Assembly: GCA_900767415.1 (NCBI GenBank)
Contig: CAAFYZ010000036.1
Location: forward strand, 21,084-85,083
Length of the DNA: 64,000 nt
Origin: Clostridia bacterium
GTDB taxonomy: Bacteria; Bacillota; Clostridia; Oscillospirales; CAG-272
Direction: 5' to 3'
Position numbers and translations under genes: made by a program. This document shows positions 1,909-45,245 of the stretch, one piece after another. The number at the start of each line of letters is the position of its first letter. Positions within the stretch are counted from its first letter, which is position 1. A model generated the notes under the pieces. That model was not told the origin of the DNA and searched no databases. It saw only the letters and a program-made list of their open reading frames with translations.

Positions 1909-2607
1909 ATGTTACAGGACATCGGGCGTATTCTCTCCTCGGGAGAGATGCGCGGTTACATTTTTCAGGGGTTCGGGAATACCCTGTTGCTTGCCGTGAC
2001 GGCGGCGTTTCTCGGTCTGATTCTCGGCTTTATCGTCGCAATCGTCAAGATTGCCGCCGAACATAATAAATATATGAAGATTCCCGCCGCGATCTGCCAC
2101 GTTTACACGACGGTTTTCCGCGGCACACCCGTTGCCTTACAGCTTTTTATTCTTGTTTTCGCCGTGTTTGCCATTCCGGGGTTCAAGCCCTATGCGGCGA
2201 TTCTTACCTTCGGGATCAACTCGGGTGCTTACGTCTCGGAGAATATCCGCGCCGGCATCGAGTCGGTGGATAAAGGGCAGATGGAGGCGGGGCGCGCGCT
2301 CGGCATGAGCTGGGGGCGCACGATGATCCGCGTCGTCCTTCCGCAGGCGGTGAAGAATATCATTCCCGCCATCGGCAACGAGATGATCGCTCTTCTGAAA
2401 GAGACGTCCATCATTATCATGATCGGTGCGACGCCGGGGACGATCACCTTCGATCTGAATGCGGCGGCGAATACCATCTACCGCCAGATCCCGAACTACC
2501 TTGCGAGTGGTCTGATCGTCGGTGCCTGTTATCTCGCTATCGTGTATCTGATGGTCCTCGGAGTAAAAATTGTAGAAAGGAAGTTAAAAGCCGGTGATCA
2601 GCGTTAG
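1909..2607 (+). CDS. amino-acid ABC transporter permease (His/Glu/Gln/Arg/opine family)
   Basis: 232-aa polytopic protein with the conserved cytoplasmic loop [20 protein letters not shown]. Lies between the SBP and ATPase genes. Confidence 0.85.
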
Positions 2608-3517
2608 AAATATCTATAAAGACTTCGGGAAACTTTCGGTGCTCCGCCGCGTTTCCTGCGAAATCGGAAAAGGGGAGAAGATCGCCATTATCGGTCCGTC
2701 GGGCGGGGGGAAAAGCACGTTGCTCCGCTGTATGAACCTGATGGAAGAGCCGACCTACGGCGAGGTTTGGATCGACGGAGAACTTCTGACACCCGTCGAC
2801 CCGTATCTGCATTTTGACGTGATCCGCACCTCCGATACCTATCGGAGACTTCTTGCGGTGCGCCGCACGGAGAAGCCGGAAGAAGACCCCGCCGCGGCAG
2901 ACGCCGAGGTCATTCGCGACATCAAAGAAAACGACCTTCTGAAACTGAAAGAAGGGAAAGCGTATCGCCGCGCCATCGCGGCACTGGAAGAAGAAAAGCG
3001 GATTCCGATCGACCTCGCCCGCCGCCGTATGGGTATGGTATTCCAGCATTTCAATCTGTTCGCGAATCTTACCGTATTGCAAAATCTTATGCTCGCCCCG
3101 ACCGAACTGCATCTTCTTACCAAAGAGGAGGCGGAAGAGAAGGCGATGGGACTGCTCGCCCGCATCGGACTTGCCGATAAGAAGGACGAATATCCCGGGC
3201 GTCTTTCGGGCGGGCAAAAGCAGAGGATTGCGATCGTGCGCGCTCTGATGATGTCTCCCGAGGTCATGCTGTTCGACGAGCCGACGAGTGCCCTTGACCC
3301 CGAGATGGTCGGAGAGGTTCTCGACCTGATCCGCGACCTTGCCGACGAAGGCATGACGATGGTCATCGTCACCCACGAGATGGGATTCGCGCGCGAGGTC
3401 GCCGACAGAGTTCTCTTCATTGCGGACGGCGGCATCGCCGAAGAAGGCACTCCGGAAGAAATCTTCACAGAGCCGAAGACCCCCCGTCTCCGCGAGTTTT
3501 TAAGTAAGGTTTTGTAA
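2594..3517 (+). CDS. amino-acid ABC transporter ATP-binding protein with a ~60-aa insertion between Walker A and the Q-loop
   Basis: GTG start overlapping the permease stop by 14 nt. Motifs: GPSGGGKST (Walker A), MVFQHFNLF (Q-loop), [26 protein letters not shown] (Walker B), VTHEM (H-loop). 307 aa, longer than I recall for typical GlnQ-type ATPases. Confidence 0.85.
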
Positions 3518-20547: not shown

Positions 20548-22065
20548 TTATTTGTTTTCTTTCCGCTCGTTTTTCAGTTTTTCAAGGTACTCTCTTGCCG
20601 CGGTTTCCGCGTCGTCCAGGGCTTTTTCGAGAGCTTTCTTCTGATCTTTCATCTTTTCGACGGCGGCTTTCTTTCTCTCTTCGATCTCTGCCAACTCCTC
20701 TTCCGAGAGATCCGCATTTATCTTCTCCAGATACGCATCGGCTTTTTCCTGCAGAAGGTCGGCTTTTCTTCTCAAAACCTTCAACTCGACTTTTTCACCG
20801 GTCAGCAGGTCGCCGATTTCATTGAGAATATCTTTCAGATCGGCGGTCGCCGTGTTCAGGACGGACTGCACGCTTTCCGGCAGGACGTTCATCATGCCGT
20901 CTACCGACGCGATCAGCTGACGCATACTCAGAATTGCCGCTTCGATTTGCGGTCTGTATTCTTCCGCTATTTCGGAGAGACGTTCTTTGATTGCCGCTTC
21001 TGCCTGCGAAAGGGCTTCGGTGAGATCCTTCTTTGTCTGTTCGAGTTCATCGGAGGGCGGGGTATTCTTGAAGAGCTTGTCGACGTATGCTTCTATGCTT
21101 TCGATGGTGACTTCACCGTTGGAATTTCTGAGGGGGTCTGCCGATTCCATGCCGAGTGCGGAAACGATCGCGTTGATCTGCCCTTCGTTCATTGGATAGG
21201 TGCGGACATTCGCCGTGAGTTCTGCCATATCGCAGATAATCTCAAAGCAGGTTGCCGCCGAGGCATACATCTGATAGGTGCCGCCGTAATAAGCGGTCGT
21301 GGGGTGGGAGAGAAACTTTTCCATGTAGAACTGCGAGTAGACACTGTAAGCCGCAAGCGCGGTTGCCCGATCGTACGTGGCAAGGGCTTGTGCCTTGGCT
21401 TCCCGATAGGTCGCCGTAGCGAATTCTTCGATCTGCGGGGTGATGTCTTTCAGCATATCGATCAGTTGCGTATCGTCGAGCGCGATCGCCGCATCGATCG
21501 AAAGATCTCCCGTTTCCGAAACGGAGAGCGCGAGCTTGAACTTCGAGACGGTCACGTTCTGCACTGCCTCGTTGTCGGGAAATTGCTTTTTGACCTCATC
21601 CATTCTGCGGAGAAGGGAATACGCGCCCTCACCGTCCGTCGTAACGCTCAGCCCCGACTTTTTCGCCGTCGCCGTAACGGTGGTGTTGACCTTGCTTAAT
21701 ACCGTGGCGGAAAAATCGCTGTCCGCGGAGGAAACGAGGGTATCGACCACCCGGTTGGATTCGTCGAGATAGCCGTACCGGATTGCCAGGTCGGTGATCT
21801 TCTGAATGGCGGTGTCGAGGGGCTCACCCACGATCCCCGTCTCTTCGTACAGAAGGACCTGTCCGTCTTCGTTCTCGCCGCGCACGCTCACGACGCGGTT
21901 GTCCCGATCGACGATCAGTTCGACGGCGGGGTTGATGTCAAGACTTATGTATGCCTGTTTTTCCGGCTTTCCGGAAGGGTCGTCGTCTTTCGCGTTGCAG
22001 GCGGTGAGCATACACAGAGACGCCGCTGTGAGGATCGACAGAACAAGGGATAAAAATTTTTTCAT
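20548..22065 (-). CDS. lipoprotein paralogous to the anti-sigma ectodomain, with a long C-terminal coiled-coil
   Basis: ORF trimmed to ATG 22065 behind CGGAGG. Lipobox LCMLTAC. Block ISLDINPAVELIVDRDNRVVSVRGENEDGQVLL...AIRYGYLD aligns with the anti-sigma block TLEINPAVAFVTDADGTVQRITSLNEDADILL...AAKLGYLD. C-terminus is E/K/A-rich heptad-like. Confidence 0.6.
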   Translation of the reverse strand: MKKFLSLVLSILTAASLCMLTACNAKDDDPSGKPEKQAYISLDINPAVELIVDRDNRVVSVRGENEDGQVLLYEETGIVGEPLDTAIQKITDLAIRYGYLDESNRVVDTLVSSADSDFSATVLSKVNTTVTATAKKSGLSVTTDGEGAYSLLRRMDEVKKQFPDNEAVQNVTVSKFKLALSVSETGDLSIDAAIALDDTQLIDMLKDITPQIEEFATATYREAKAQALATYDRATALAAYSVYSQFYMEKFLSHPTTAYYGGTYQMYASAATCFEIICDMAELTANVRTYPMNEGQINAIVSALGMESADPLRNSNGEVTIESIEAYVDKLFKNTPPSDELEQTKKDLTEALSQAEAAIKERLSEIAEEYRPQIEAAILSMRQLIASVDGMMNVLPESVQSVLNTATADLKDILNEIGDLLTGEKVELKVLRRKADLLQEKADAYLEKINADLSEEELAEIEERKKAAVEKMKDQKKALEKALDDAETAAREYLEKLKNERKENK

Positions 22066-22070
22066 AAGAT

Positions 22071-22138
22071 AAAACCTCCGTTTCGGCAGTCGGCTTTTTG
22101 ACTGCTTTTGACCGTTAAACACGGCAACGGAGGTTTTT
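22071..22138 (-). promoter_or_regulatory. long-range helix enclosing the Shine-Dalgarno of the lipoprotein gene
   Basis: Perfect 12-bp complement aaaacctccgtt (22071-22082) / aacggaggtttt (22127-22138). On the minus strand the 3' arm contains GGAGG, 7 nt before ATG 22065. Inner hairpin gcagtc/gactgc. Confidence 0.5.
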
Positions 22139-22160: not shown

Positions 22161-23540
22161 TTATTTTTTATTCCAAAAATTTTCGAGCGAACCGTATTTT
22201 TCCGTTATCTCGTTGACAAAAGCACCGTAATCCGCTTCCGTGATCGCGCTCCGCGGCTGCTCGTAGATGCTTTGATACGCTTCGGCTCTCGAGCGAAACC
22301 GCGCCGTCCACATCGTTTCCAGTTGCGCGATATACTCCTGCACGGTTGTCGGAACACGCAGGAGGGTTTCGAGTCCGCCGACGTCGCAGCCGATGTTTTT
22401 CAGGATGCCGATATATTTTTCCGCCGAAGACTGAAAGTCCGACAAGGAGAGGGAAGAAAACACGGTTTCGAGATCCAACCCCGAAAGGAAGGAATAGACG
22501 TTGACGGCAGAGGTCAGCTCATCCGTGTCGTTGATCGTAACGCCGAATTTTTCTTTATAGGCGCAGAGCAGGTCTTCCATCTTCCGCATCAGAGCGGTAA
22601 ACTCTTCGCTCTCGCTCTCCCCCTGATATTTTTTGACCCGCCAATAATCCAGGGGCAGGAGAGAAGGATTGTCTTTGTGCATCATGATTTCGTAATTGCA
22701 CCGTGCGATCTGCTGCAGCATCTGCGCATTCAAGAGGATGTCGTTCAGGTTCTTCAACAGTTTGTCGCGCACGGTTTCAAAGGTTTGCAAGCCCATGATA
22801 TACGTCCGATAAAGATTTTGGAGTTCTTCCGCGTCCGCGTTCTCTTCCACCCGCTCTCCAAAGCGGTCGGAGAGACGGCAGAGTGCGTCGGTCAGTTCTT
22901 TGAGATCGGAGGTTTCCGCTACCCCCAGCCGTCCGCACAGCTCTTTGACGTCCGCCCGGTTTTCCACCACGACCGCATAGATCCCGTTTGTCATAAAGTA
23001 CTCTTTCAGACTTCCCGACACGGCGGAGAGGAGATTTCCGTCCGTCTCCGTACTGCTCGACAGGCGAACGGCACTTTGCGTGGCGGAGAGGTCGAGATAG
23101 CCGAGTTTTGCCGCCTCGTCGGTGTAGGCGACGATCGCTTCGGTCAGCGGTTTGTTTTTCACTTTTTCCGTGAGTGCGGGGTCGGACAGCAGAATGTCGG
23201 CGTCTTCGTTCAGCGAAGTAATGCGTTGCACGGTGCCGTCCGCATCGGTAACGAAGGCGACGGCGGGGTTAATCTCCAGAGTGAATACGAAGTGATCGAA
23301 GGCGGGCGGCGGGGGTGCCGGCGCTTTGAAAATGCCGATAAACGCAAAAACGATTGCAATCGCGACGGCGGCAAGCGCAGAGCCCGCCCCGAGATAGCGT
23401 TTGAAGAGGGGCGGCTTGGTTTTTACGACGGGGATTTTTGTATCGGTCGCCGTGACGATCGGTGCGTTTTTGACGTCTTCGCGCAGAGGCGGCGCGATAT
23501 GATCGAATTCTTCGTTGAATCGCTTTTTCCAGGATTTCAT
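22161..23540 (-). CDS. putative anti-sigma factor (single-pass membrane protein)
   Basis: Start ATG 23540 forms ATGA with the sigma stop and follows GGAAGGAGGAAG. About 60-aa cytoplasmic N-terminus, TM segment GAGSALAAVAIAIVFAFIGIF, large ectodomain. The assignment rests on context and translational coupling. Confidence 0.55.
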   Translation of the reverse strand: MKSWKKRFNEEFDHIAPPLREDVKNAPIVTATDTKIPVVKTKPPLFKRYLGAGSALAAVAIAIVFAFIGIFKAPAPPPPAFDHFVFTLEINPAVAFVTDADGTVQRITSLNEDADILLSDPALTEKVKNKPLTEAIVAYTDEAAKLGYLDLSATQSAVRLSSSTETDGNLLSAVSGSLKEYFMTNGIYAVVVENRADVKELCGRLGVAETSDLKELTDALCRLSDRFGERVEENADAEELQNLYRTYIMGLQTFETVRDKLLKNLNDILLNAQMLQQIARCNYEIMMHKDNPSLLPLDYWRVKKYQGESESEEFTALMRKMEDLLCAYKEKFGVTINDTDELTSAVNVYSFLSGLDLETVFSSLSLSDFQSSAEKYIGILKNIGCDVGGLETLLRVPTTVQEYIAQLETMWTARFRSRAEAYQSIYEQPRSAITEADYGAFVNEITEKYGSLENFWNKK

Positions 23541-24067
23541 CTTTCTTCCTCCTTCCATGCTACTTTCAGTTTGTCCGCGGCTCGTTTATATTTCGAGGTG
23601 ATCGTTCCTAACGGACGTTGAAGGATTGTTGCGATTTCTTTATGTTTATATCCCCATATCACATGGAGAATGAGGATGCGCTGTTCTTCTTCGTCCAGCA
23701 CGCGCCGCATGACGGAGGTGAGTGCGCTCCGCGTTTCCAAGCTTTCGTAGGCGTCCGTTTCGCCGACGGCGGATTCCGTCTGCCACCCGATATAGTTGGA
23801 ATTTTTGCGTATTTCGTTCAGTGCCGTGTTCTTCGCGATCTGTAAGATCCACGCCAGCCCGTTGCTGCCGGCTTTGTATTGCCCGATGTTCTGCTTGATT
23901 TTCAGATAGGTGGTCTGCATCGCGTCTTCGCAGTCGGCACTGCTTTTGAAATAGGAGAAGAGAAAGGCATATACTCCGCGCTTAGTCTCTGTGTAGAGGC
24001 GTCCGAAGGCGTCGTTGTCGCCGTGCGCGATCTGTTTCAAAGCATGGTCGATTTCCCGTTTGTTCAT
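23537..24067 (-). CDS. ECF-type RNA polymerase sigma-70 family factor
   Basis: 176 aa. Region 2 (DCEDAMQTTYLKI...) and region 4 (ILILHVIWGYKHKEIATILQRPLGTITSKYKRA) have an HTH-like pattern. Confidence 0.85.
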   Translation of the reverse strand: MNKREIDHALKQIAHGDNDAFGRLYTETKRGVYAFLFSYFKSSADCEDAMQTTYLKIKQNIGQYKAGSNGLAWILQIAKNTALNEIRKNSNYIGWQTESAVGETDAYESLETRSALTSVMRRVLDEEEQRILILHVIWGYKHKEIATILQRPLGTITSKYKRAADKLKVAWKEEER

Positions 24068-24216
24068 TGTCCGTTCCTTTCCTATCCGTTAAACAAAACG
24101 GAATCGGATTTTATTGCATAAAAAGAAAAAATTTACAGGGAGAGCATCGCGGAGTGCAATGCCGAAAACGGCGGGCGGGAAGCCGCAGACTTTCCGCAGG
24201 AGCGTCTCGTGATTCT

Positions 24217-24245
24217 ATTATATCACTTGTTTTTCAAAATCGCAA
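24217..24245 (-). promoter_or_regulatory. sigma-A type promoter of the ECF sigma operon
   Basis: On the minus strand: TTGCGA (24245-24240), 17-nt spacer, TATAAT (24222-24217). Predicts a ~140-nt leader before ATG 24067. Confidence 0.65.
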
Positions 24246-24246
24246 G

Positions 24247-24808
24247 TGCCGCAGAGCGCGATATGGTGGAATCTGCTCTTCGCGGCGCGGTGCGCCGTGC
24301 GATCTCTGGGGGATCCGAAGAGCAGTGTTCGAACCGCGGGTGCTATCCTTGCGTCGGCAGAAAACAGAGGTAGGCAAAACGCACCCGCGGTCGAAAAGCC
24401 CCGGGGCGCATAAAAAGGCACCCCCACATCGGGGGTGCGCAGAGCGCGATATGGCGGAATCTGCTCTTCGCGGCGCGATGCGCCGTGCGATCTCTGGGGG
24501 ATCCGAAGAGCAGTGTTCGAACCGCGGGTGCTGACTCGGCGCAGAGAAGAGCGAAAGAGGTGCGACGCACCCGCGGTCGAAAAGCCACGGGGCACACAAA
24601 AAAGCACCCCGTATTGGGGTGCGCAGAGCGTGATATGGCGGAATCTGTTCTTCGCGGCGCGATGCGCCGTGCGATCCCACGGGGATCCGAAGAGCAGTGT
24701 TCGAACCGCGGGCGCTATCCTTGCGTCGGCAGGAAACAGAGGTAGGCAAAACGCACCCGCGGTCGAAAGGCCATGAGGCACACAAAAAAGCACCCCGTAT
24801 TGGGGTGC
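24247..24808. repeat. three tandem ~186-nt structured units, each ending in a GC hairpin (candidate tRNA-distal ncRNA array)
   Basis: Units start at 24247, 24436 and 24620. They share the helices ctgctcttcg/cgaagagcag, cggcgc/gcgccg, gatcYc/gggatc, ccgcgggYgc/gcacccgcgg and gcacccc/ggggtgc. The apical insert differs in the middle unit. Functional strand is unresolved (see findings). Confidence 0.8.
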
Positions 24809-24815
24809 TTTTTTG

Positions 24816-24890
24816 TGGTGACTCGTGGCGGAATCGAACCGCCGTTACAGCCGTGAAAGGGCCGTGTCTTAACCTCTTGACCAACGAGCC
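24816..24890 (-). tRNA. tRNA-Glu (anticodon UUC)
   Basis: Minus strand: ggctcgttggtcaagaggttaagacacggccctTTCacggctgtaacggcggttcgattccgccacgagtcacca. Acceptor ggctcgt/acgagtc, T-loop ttcgatt, encoded CCA. Confidence 0.93.
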
Positions 24891-24893
24891 GAA

Positions 24894-24970
24894 TGGTAGC
24901 GGAAGTCGGATTTGAACCAACGACCTGCCGGGTATGAACCGGACGCTCTAGCCAACTGAGCTATTCCGCC
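24894..24970 (-). tRNA. tRNA-Met (anticodon CAU, elongator-like)
   Basis: Minus strand: ggcggaatagctcagttggctagagcgtccggttCATacccggcaggtcgttggttcaaatccgacttccgctacca. Lacks the initiator features (C1:A72, triple G-C anticodon stem). An Ile2 (lysidine) identity cannot be excluded from sequence alone. Confidence 0.88.
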
Positions 24971-25011
24971 GTTTGCGCGGAAAATGAGGATGCCTCAAAC
25001 CTTGCTGGAAT

Positions 25012-25040
25012 ATTATATCACGGAGAAATGCAAAAGTCAA
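25012..25040 (-). promoter_or_regulatory. sigma-A type promoter of the tRNA-Met/tRNA-Glu operon
   Basis: Minus strand: TTGACT (25040-25035), 17-nt spacer, TATAAT (25017-25012). About 40 nt upstream of the tRNA-Met 5' end. Confidence 0.7.
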
Positions 25041-25162
25041 GATGTTTTGCAAAGTTTTTCGGATTTTTGGCGATTTTTCCGTTTTTGTAAAAAAGGAGAG
25101 GGATTTTTCGCCCGAGCGGATAGCGAAAAAATCGGCGTCCGAAGGGAATTGCGGGTTGCTTC

Positions 25163-44337: not shown

Positions 44338-44451
44338 CGGTTTCTTTGGGGATTGGTGAAATTCCATACCGGCAGTAAAGTCTGCGAGGCATATGCCTGA
44401 CGGGGTGCGATTCCCCGACCGACGGTAAAGTCCGGAAGAGAAAAGAAACGG
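44338..44451 (+). promoter_or_regulatory. FMN riboswitch (RFN element) aptamer
   Basis: P1 gtttctt/aagaaac. Conserved cores ggggattGGTGAAATTCCataCCGGCaGTAAAGtc and GGGGTGcGATTCCccgaCCGACgGTAAAGTCcGGAagaGA match the RFN consensus as I recall it. Confidence 0.85.
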
Positions 44452-44497
44452 CGGGCATATCGCTTTTTGCGTGTGACACCCTACTTTTTGTGAAAAT

Positions 44498-44534
44498 ATC
44501 CCCGTGGGCTCATAGAAGTCCGCGGGGATTTTTC
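44498..44534 (+). terminator. riboswitch expression-platform terminator
   Basis: atccccgtgg / ccgcggggat stem with a 12-nt loop, followed by ttttt. Upstream of the ribU start. Confidence 0.7.
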
Positions 44535-44561
44535 TCGGAAACCGCTCGGAAAAGAGGGGTT

Positions 44562-45245
44562 ATGAAAACCATGAACAGCAAAAGAAAAAACCAAAATCGG
44601 AAAATCACGGAAGCCGTCGTCGGCATCGCCATGTTCGCGGCACTTGCCTACGGCGTGACCTTTGTCTTCCGGATTCCCGTCTCCTTTCTGACCTTCGACG
44701 CAAAGGACGCGGTCATCACCGTCGCCTCCTTCGTCTACGGTCCGATTGCCGGGATCGTGATGTCCCTGCTTACCGCTTTGATCGAACTTTTCACGGTCAG
44801 CGGCACGGGCTTTTACGGCTTTGTGATGAACTTTGTCTCTTCGGCGGTCTTCGCCGCGACGGCGTCGGGGATTTATAAACTGTGGCGCAATCCGCGCGGC
44901 GCGGTGCTCGGACCCGTTCTTGCCGTGCTGACCATGACGGGGACCATGCTCCTTATGAACCTTTGGATCACGCCGATCTACATGGGTGCACCGCGGGATC
45001 AGGTCGTCGCCATGATTCCGACGCTTCTCTTTCCCTTCAACCTTGCAAAAGGACTTCTGAACGCCGCCCTCGCCATGCTCCTGTATAAGCCGCTGTCGGT
45101 CGCGCTCTCCCGCGCGGGTCTTGTCGGACGCGGAGAAGAGAAAAAGTCCTTCTCGTGGAACCGCACGAGCATTCTGATCGCCGTCGTCTCCCTTCTCATG
45201 ATCGCCGCCGCCGTTATCCTGTTCGTCTTTTTGAAACAGAAATAA
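44562..45245 (+). CDS. ribU: ECF transporter S component for riboflavin
   Basis: ORF 44490 (GTG) trimmed to ATG 44562 behind AGAGGGG. Multi-TM S-component pattern. Sits directly behind an FMN riboswitch. Confidence 0.8.
   Translation: MKTMNSKRKNQNRKITEAVVGIAMFAALAYGVTFVFRIPVSFLTFDAKDAVITVASFVYGPIAGIVMSLLTALIELFTVSGTGFYGFVMNFVSSAVFAATASGIYKLWRNPRGAVLGPVLAVLTMTGTMLLMNLWITPIYMGAPRDQVVAMIPTLLFPFNLAKGLLNAALAMLLYKPLSVALSRAGLVGRGEEKKSFSWNRTSILIAVVSLLMIAAAVILFVFLKQK

Follow-up and report, generated by a model that had tools for sequence, protein, structure and literature searches.

What occupies the interval between a tRNA gene and a sigma factor operon when three long, structured repeats stand there head-to-tail, and does such an array encode RNAs? 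This question is raised by a 64,000-nt stretch of Clostridia bacterium DNA (assembly GCA_900767415.1, contig CAAFYZ010000036.1), hereafter the window, to the full length of which all window coordinates refer. A preliminary description, made from the sequence alone, had proposed that three ~186-nt units between tRNA-Glu and the promoter of an extracytoplasmic function (ECF)-type sigma factor operon form a non-coding RNA (ncRNA) array. We found that the array is a recombination-driven, strain-variable tandem repeat with consensus intrinsic terminators on the tRNA strand, and that the ncRNA-array claim is not supported.

We determined the layout of the locus using Tandem Repeats Finder (TRF), ARAGORN and a promoter consensus scan, all of which agreed with the three tandem units described. 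TRF detected a single array (24250-24808; period 186, 3.0 copies, 85% matches), and its units, which are 184-189 nt long and arranged head-to-tail, are designated C, B and A in the order in which they follow the tRNA (Table 1). The array begins 8 nt past tRNA-Glu. Given the TRF span and the position of the sigma promoter (24245-24217 on the minus strand), it occupies the whole gap up to the -35 element, as had been claimed; unit A, which abuts this element, has no terminator of its own after it. A 24-nt core (GAAGAGCAGTGTTCGAACCGCGGG) occurred exactly three times in the 64 kb, always within the array (0 expected from 100 shuffles), and a low-stringency BLAST search of the remaining sequence with the units as queries returned only 14-nt chance matches. 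The consensus scan found no promoter-like site inside the array.

The number and order of units differ among strains that are otherwise nearly identical. Three further sequences (L001, L002 and L015) have flanks 100% identical to those of the window over ~2.8 kb, with 0 mismatches in the sigma gene, its leader, the tRNAs, the serC spacer and serC. Between these flanks, L001 has three units in the window's own order (X-Y-X, where X and Y denote the two types of apical insert described below), L015 has two (X-Y; unit C followed by a hybrid in which 5' sequence from B is joined to 3' sequence from A) and L002 has one (X; a hybrid with 5' sequence from C and 3' sequence from A). Such hybrids are what unequal crossing-over between units would be expected to produce. 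The stretches shared at the hybrid switch points are 35 and 53 nt long, compared with a final k of 119 for the assemblers, and simple graph collapse is therefore unlikely. Strains diverged by 2-5% (L010, L021 and L022) show other arrangements; together with spurious open reading frames (ORFs) that cross the array in other assemblies, they add the orders X-?-X, Y-X, X-X-X and X-Y-X-Y. The last two include the frames P0363 (X-X-X) and P0362 (X-Y-X-Y), so that 1, 2 and 3 units are found between identical flanks and the spurious ORFs contribute arrays of three and four. Furthermore, L021/L022 and P0362 contain an internal junction with an extra CGCGATTCTTCTT, which elsewhere forms the start of the flank past the array, and the array has thus undergone more than one duplication, with end points that differed.

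Bacterial intergenic minisatellites are known as variable-number tandem repeat (VNTR) loci, for example the mycobacterial interspersed repetitive units (MIRUs). The present array resembles them in being an intergenic tandem repeat with a unit of tens to a few hundred bases, in the variation of its copy number among near-identical strains, and in a change of copy number by unequal recombination or slippage. It differs in that its unit is long, consists of nested perfect palindromes and a terminator, and is confined to a single locus in the 64 kb.

The anatomy of the unit bears out the preliminary description. An inverted-repeat scan recovered every helix that had been listed, namely those of a three-way junction and of a second long helix (P2) that encloses the apical insert. 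The exchange of this insert in the middle unit was likewise confirmed (Y, 35 nt, in unit B; X, 37 nt, in the outer units). The hairpin at 24604-24622 is identical to that at 24790-24808 beside tRNA-Glu, and the terminal hairpins do read on the minus strand as a stem followed by a U tract, both as stated. In the terminator scan of the minus strand, G+C-rich hairpins with U tracts were found at 24622-24604 and 24438-24418. Because the stem next to the tRNA is preceded by A6 and followed by T6, this tRNA-proximal hairpin is terminator-like on both strands. The minus strand therefore carries three consensus hairpin and U-tract terminators in series, one before each unit, and the terminator accounts for ~35 of the 186 nt of each unit.

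Table 1. Positions of the repeat units, their structural elements and the neighbouring genes in the window
Feature	Position	Strand	Basis
Unit C, insert X, tRNA-proximal	24620-24808	-	TRF, unit alignments
Unit B, insert Y, middle	24436-24619	-	TRF, unit alignments
Unit A, insert X, promoter-proximal	24247-24435	-	TRF, sequence
Three-way junction, unit B: 10-bp closing helix (24461-24470/24504-24513) and two 6-bp hairpins	24461-24513		Inverted repeats, folds
Three-way junction equivalent, unit A	24273-24325		Inverted repeats
Three-way junction equivalent, unit C	24645-24697		Inverted repeats
Helix P2, unit B: 11-bp perfect arms (24521-24531/24567-24577) enclosing insert Y (24532-24566)	24521-24577		Inverted repeats
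Helix P2, unit A, enclosing insert X (24344-24380)	24333-24391		Inverted repeats
Helix P2, unit C, enclosing insert X (24716-24752)	24705-24763		Inverted repeats
T-arm-like 5' half, unit B (GCGGTTCGA)	24517-24525	-	Sequence; alignment to tRNA-Glu
T-arm-like 3' half, unit B (GATTCCGCCA)	24452-24461	-	Sequence; alignment to tRNA-Glu
Terminator adjoining tRNA-Glu: 16-nt perfect inverted arms (24781-24796/24802-24817)	24781-24817		Inverted-repeat scan
Intrinsic terminator, C/B boundary: TTTTTT after a 7-bp stem	24604-24622	-	Terminator scan
Intrinsic terminator, B/A boundary: CTTTTT after a stem of 9 pairs	24418-24438	-	Terminator scan
Sigma-70-type promoter, tRNA operon: TTGACT-17-TATAAT with TG	25012-25040	-	Consensus scan, 11/12 matches
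tRNA-Met (CAT), first gene in tRNA operon	24894-24970	-	ARAGORN; Rfam tRNA, 64.2 bits
tRNA-Glu (TTC)	24816-24890	-	ARAGORN; Rfam tRNA, 60.8 bits
Sigma-70-type promoter, sigma/anti-sigma operon: TTGCGA-17-TATAAT with TG	24217-24245	-	Consensus scan
ECF-type sigma factor gene	23537-24067	-	Pfam Sigma70_r2/r4_2
First RsgI-like anti-sigma gene after sigma gene	22161-23558	-	Pfam RsgI_M
Second RsgI-like anti-sigma gene after sigma gene	20548-22122	-	Pfam RsgI_M

From these features we propose the following mechanism. The array is a minisatellite whose unit consists of the tRNA-Glu terminator and a ~150-nt palindrome-rich core, and it grows, shrinks and is rearranged by unequal homologous recombination or slippage between units, as seen in alleles of 1 to 4 units with the two insert types in different orders. 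Three successive strong terminators would block read-through from the strong tRNA operon into the sigma/anti-sigma operon, and the core, which may descend from a tRNA T arm, would be transcribed at a low level, in read-through RNA only. We consider the chances evenly balanced that, if the array has any activity, its serial terminators insulate the sigma/anti-sigma operon from the tRNA operon, and that the core is a T-arm relic with palindromic inserts like those of the E. coli RtT repeats. Serial termination on the minus strand is the only activity that the sequence itself supports. Insulation had been offered before as an alternative, in the form of a triple terminator shielding the sigma operon from tRNA read-through; this much of it stands, and the ~150-nt core is left unexplained. 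The locus resembles tandem terminators or insulators in having three serial terminators on the minus strand between a tRNA operon and a regulated operon, and differs from them in its structured core, which has no role in that model.

The repeats distal to E. coli tyrT had been mentioned as a precedent, and the comparison proved closer than was then recognized. RtT is reported to be encoded in the repeat unit of the tyrT operon and has been linked to processing of the tyrT transcript (PMC3318445; bioRxiv 10.1101/2024.07.17.603846); the 178-bp repeats distal to tyrT-tyrV, which correspond to Rfam RF00391, are attributed to Bosl and Kersten 1991, as cited in PMC3318445. We analyzed the E. coli K-12 tyrT-tyrV locus (L030; NC_000913.3 1285800-1288000) in the same way. 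Its repeats have a period of 178 and 3.1 copies (905-1463 of L030), and in each repeat AAGGTTCGA is followed by ~74 nt of helix-closed hairpins and then by AATCCTTCCCCCACCACCA; that is, the T arm of tRNA-Tyr is split after TTCGA. In both loci, therefore, ~180-nt tandem repeats in about three copies lie directly downstream of a tRNA gene, on the tRNA strand, and contain a T arm split after TTCGA by a helix-closed hairpin insert (~74 nt in E. coli and 56 nt here). However, the E. coli repeats share 19 contiguous nt with their tRNA and retain its whole 3' end, CCA included, whereas the units here retain the T arm only; a strong intrinsic terminator separates the tRNA from every unit here, and the units possess a further long helix that carries the variable apical module. 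The shared design is real and specific, and the differences are equally clear. RF00391 (gathering score, 45 bits) matched the E. coli locus four times (133-138 bits), with a match to each repeat, but a search of both strands of 24100-25050 gave no match even with the cutoff relaxed to E<=10. One of the four E. coli matches falls between tyrT and tyrV.

This parallel raises the possibility that read-through of the tRNA operon is cut into ~170-190-nt units, each ending at its own terminator hairpin, to give RtT-like small RNAs whose specificity would reside in the X/Y module. The layout speaks for such processing, and in the register leader-core-terminator, units C and B would end in a hairpin and U tract, as small RNA genes do. 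However, RF00391 is silent, the acceptor strand and CCA of the RtT repeats are absent, a strong terminator precedes every unit, and the array contains no promoter-like site. We consider this explanation a credible rival, although an unlikely one. Its more specific form, in which the units are a second, independently evolved RtT-type case (T-loop-interrupted tRNA-derived RNAs cut from read-through transcripts, with the X/Y module setting the binding partner), would be highly unlikely.

The similarity to the tRNA is itself limited. Each unit repeats the T arm of tRNA-Glu (GCGGTTCGATTCCGCCA) as two separate halves: on the minus strand GCGGTTCGA is followed after 56 nt by GATTCCGCCA, and the three-way junction interrupts the arm after TTCGA. 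We compared this split similarity with that of dinucleotide-shuffled sequences and obtained P values of about 0.007 when gaps were scored strictly and of 0.05-0.08 under looser scoring, while E. coli RtT, which served as the positive control, lay far outside its shuffles. The two T-arm halves that had been described are thus both present on the minus strand, and their resemblance to tRNA-Glu is suggestive but not overwhelming. The copies comprise 9 + 10 nt only, and the 13 nt after GATTCCGCCA are unlike an acceptor strand. If the resemblance reflects descent, the core would go back to a tRNA T arm with a helix-closed insert of two hairpins placed after TTCGA, a design like that of the tyrT RtT repeats. 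As had been stated, the unit is not a tRNA cloverleaf; ARAGORN and the Rfam tRNA model found none in the units and identified only tRNA-Met and tRNA-Glu. We also rejected a tRNA pseudogene, because ARAGORN returned nothing for unit B even when the three-way junction was removed and a three-segment chain reaching the anticodon loop was non-significant. A displaced tRNA 3' end, such as a relic of an attachment (att) site, was rejected because of the missing acceptor strand. Separately, the tRNA-Glu gene of L015 shows one substitution in the anticodon stem (at ~2570; GACAAGGCC instead of GACACGGCC), which could be an error of sequencing or assembly or else a real variant.

We further analyzed the selective constraint on the unit as a possible sign of an RNA product. 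Folding of unit B was more stable than that of shuffled sequences whichever strand was read (z -5.0 for minus and z -3.6 for plus). The minus-strand value would suit a processed RNA. However, a stable fold on both strands is expected of DNA palindromes, and folding therefore does not identify the strand. In an alignment of nine distinct unit copies from several strains, 0 helix pairs were changed on both sides, so that the processed-RNA explanation gains no covariation; because the copies are too alike, covariation speaks neither way. The three substitutions found in stems are all single transitions, two that leave a G-U pair in plus-strand RNA and one that leaves it in minus-strand RNA. This confirms that two of the three wobble-type substitutions favor the plus strand, as had been noted. 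The split outcomes do not identify a strand, which also weighs against an RtT-like RNA.

The inserts X and Y might in principle be exchangeable modules. A guide-like array, in which a conserved scaffold presents 35-37-nt targeting modules in the manner of CRISPR or guide RNAs, would account for a constant scaffold, for the swapped apical insert and for the retention of both insert types in diverged strains. However, only two insert types occur in all alleles seen, their mutual similarity is only marginal (P about 0.04) and they drift by point differences between strains within each type; moreover, the one-unit allele lacks Y, and no effector-like gene lies nearby. The 21-nt core of Y and the 23-nt core of X had no exact match in IMG/VR, and X and Y had no match or complement in the window beyond chance. 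The suggestion that the inserts might be complementary to other loci thus found no support in the window, a result that also weighs against a specificity role in an RtT-like RNA. We regard a guide-like array as extremely improbable. In the simplest reading, the inserts would be a loop under relaxed constraint with two old alleles rather than a targeting module. A comparison of the inserts ruled out that Y is the inverse of X. In addition, Y contains GCGCAGAGAAGAGC (24539-24552), 14 nt that show 86% complementarity to the beginning of the junction (GCTCTTCGCGGCGC, 24463-24476); this match gives unit B an alternative pairing that the X units do not have. Short pieces of the unit (GCGCAGAG and GAAGAGC) also recur in insert Y.

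We next consider how widely the element is distributed. At the gathering threshold, Rfam recognized only the two tRNAs and an unrelated flavin mononucleotide (FMN) riboswitch in the window, and at E<=10 on both strands the matches touching the units scored far below gathering and represented terminator-driven noise; the impression that the fold belongs to no known riboswitch or small RNA is therefore upheld as far as Rfam families are concerned. A pattern satisfied by all unit variants (GGTTCGAACAC-N40-65-AGATTCCRCCA) gave one chance match, within a coding sequence, in 185,579 GTDB species-representative genomes, two chance matches, also within coding sequence, in JGI metagenomes, and none in IMG/VR. 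A blastn search of unit B against plasmid and phage records returned nothing. The sigma and SerC proteins place the host in an Acutalibacteraceae-like Clostridia lineage from gut metagenomes. When the accidental 191-residue frame across the array was compared with 1.8 billion protein representatives, five matches were obtained, of which four are arrays from the same species cluster. The remaining sign of the element, and the only one beyond that cluster, is P0365 (ENA contig, 61,163 bp; E=1e-5), a spurious 167-aa ORF through a diverged array of ~2.6 units. Its period, as read from the ORF translation, is 56 aa (168 nt), and it retains the terminator-and-leader portion together with some of the second-hairpin region. 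Apart from this one diverged array, the element is restricted to one Acutalibacteraceae-like species cluster. Assemblies often break at or near the array (contig ends in L003, L005, L011, L012 and L016; runs of N in L010, L021 and L022), and at least five spurious proteins deposited from gene calling run across it.

Several relatives were compared at this position. The sister species L013, whose serC is 84% identical at the nucleotide level, is the nearest species with a syntenic tRNA-Glu and readable downstream sequence; it keeps tRNA-Met-tRNA-Glu beside serC but has no unit, and a different terminator and unrelated sequence follow its tRNA-Glu. The sequence of L012 (serC, 87% nucleotide identity) stops 34 nt past its own terminator, too early to be informative, and more distant SerC relatives (L017-L020) have no tRNAs at this position. 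In L006 and L007, whose sigma factors are 71-72% identical, the region upstream of the sigma operon contains other genes or unrelated sequence without tRNA, and no unit, although the -10 region of the sigma promoter and the leader are kept. The trio of sigma and two RsgI-like anti-sigma genes is also kept in relatives with a 72%-identical sigma. Because L013 lacks the unit, a close relative without it does exist, an outcome that the preliminary description had listed among those that would refute it, as pointing to a recent neutral duplication, and one that also disfavors an RtT-like RNA. Together with the terminator before every unit, the lack of an internal promoter-like site, the nine copies without compensatory change and the variation of copy number between identical flanks, it leaves the step from structured repeat to ncRNA array unsupported.

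Some strains carry an additional gene beside the array. In L010, L021 and L022, the last unit is separated from the sigma -35 by a 1.26-kb segment that carries a Fic-domain gene (L010 1240-2497; the insertion point corresponds to window 24246/24247). The gene encodes 360 aa, has its own promoter-like site (TTGACA-17-TAGTAT) and is convergent with the tRNAs, and the segment is bracketed by a 9-bp direct repeat, CGCTCTGCG, which is identical to the last 9 nt of every unit. In these strains the bidirectional tRNA-proximal hairpin would also end the convergent Fic transcript. Fic homologues with 85% identity lie beside DUF6809 in other contigs, one of them near a large serine recombinase. The Fic polymorphism implies that the tRNA-Glu flank behaves as a variable hot spot. 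In L013, an 84-aa ORF with no Pfam hit on record lies downstream of tRNA-Glu (2402-2656, minus strand); by eye, its product resembles a helix-turn-helix region fused to the beginning of a Fic-type protein, in which case Fic-related genes would adjoin this tRNA in two species.

These observations might indicate that the core was left behind by mobile DNA at an integration hot spot linked to the tRNA. It would then be a decayed attachment site or a structured single-stranded DNA site (an origin or element end) of elements that used the 3' flank of tRNA-Glu, and the core would have been amplified later. The Fic cassette with its direct repeat at the array end, the homologue near a serine recombinase, the partial T-arm copy in the unit, and nested perfect palindromes that fold equally on either strand are all consistent with this origin. 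However, the T-arm copy is not accompanied by the acceptor 3' strand expected of a displaced tRNA end, Pfam annotation of the neighbours found no integrase or transposase within ~5 kb (the genes near the array are the sigma, anti-sigma, SerC and ABC-transporter genes), the unit is unmatched in the plasmid, phage and IMG/VR collections, and no other copy occurs in the 64 kb. Nucleotide homology to mobile Fic loci is confined to the ORF, for which reason the Fic cassette was also rejected as the source of the unit. We rate a mobile-DNA origin as distinctly unlikely.

Other known classes of repeat were compared with the units. A group II intron remnant was considered because the unit starts with GTGTG after a T tract, but no Rfam group II intron matched at E<=10. 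Type III toxin-antitoxin (ToxI-like) repeats were rejected, since the Fic gene is convergent with the units, lies beyond the array and is absent from the window, and integron attC sites were rejected, since no integrase is nearby and a reading of the sequence revealed no GTTRRRY core at the junctions. In comparison with repetitive extragenic palindromic (REP) sequences, bacterial interspersed mosaic elements (BIMEs) and miniature inverted-repeat transposable elements (MITEs), the window contains no further copy, and by eye no convincing terminal inverted repeats span the whole unit. The FMN riboswitch elsewhere in the window (RF00050, 107 bits, 44338-44451, plus strand) is followed downstream by an ORF at 44490-45245.

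Several observations weigh against our preferred reading of a recombination-prone terminator repeat. The copy numbers were called from short-read metagenome assemblies, and assembly error remains a caveat. Terminators alone need no 150-nt core with four perfect helices, and the one-unit allele has one terminator only; amplification is thus not essential. Outside the insert and terminator, variable columns are rarer at paired (3/66) than at unpaired positions (13/64; Fisher test, P=0.007), ~100 nt of scaffold are invariant between strains whose sigma 5' leaders differ by 4-5%, and both insert types persist in strains 2-5% apart. The distribution of changes gives a modest hint that the stems may be under constraint, and stems more conserved than loops would also be expected of an RtT-like RNA. 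Finally, because the diverged array P0365 exists, the element is somewhat older than one species, which likewise suits an RtT-like RNA.

The array is best filed with the tRNA-distal tandem repeats of RtT type, behaving as a minisatellite. To our knowledge, the function of RtT in E. coli has been unclear since 1991. If the array is expressed, this structurally parallel Firmicute array would provide a second system in which RtT function could be tested and would suggest that structured repeats arise from tRNA 3' ends by a general route; if the independent RtT-type reading is true, T-loop-interrupted tRNA relics would be a recurrent source of small RNAs in distant phyla. The array also calls for caution in annotation, as it breaks metagenome contigs and yields spurious ORFs that are now in protein databases. 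Even as no more than a terminator repeat prone to recombination, it shows how the intergenic regions beside tRNA genes change within a species of gut Clostridia. Variation in copy number beside the sigma-operon promoter could alter read-through into the sigma operon.

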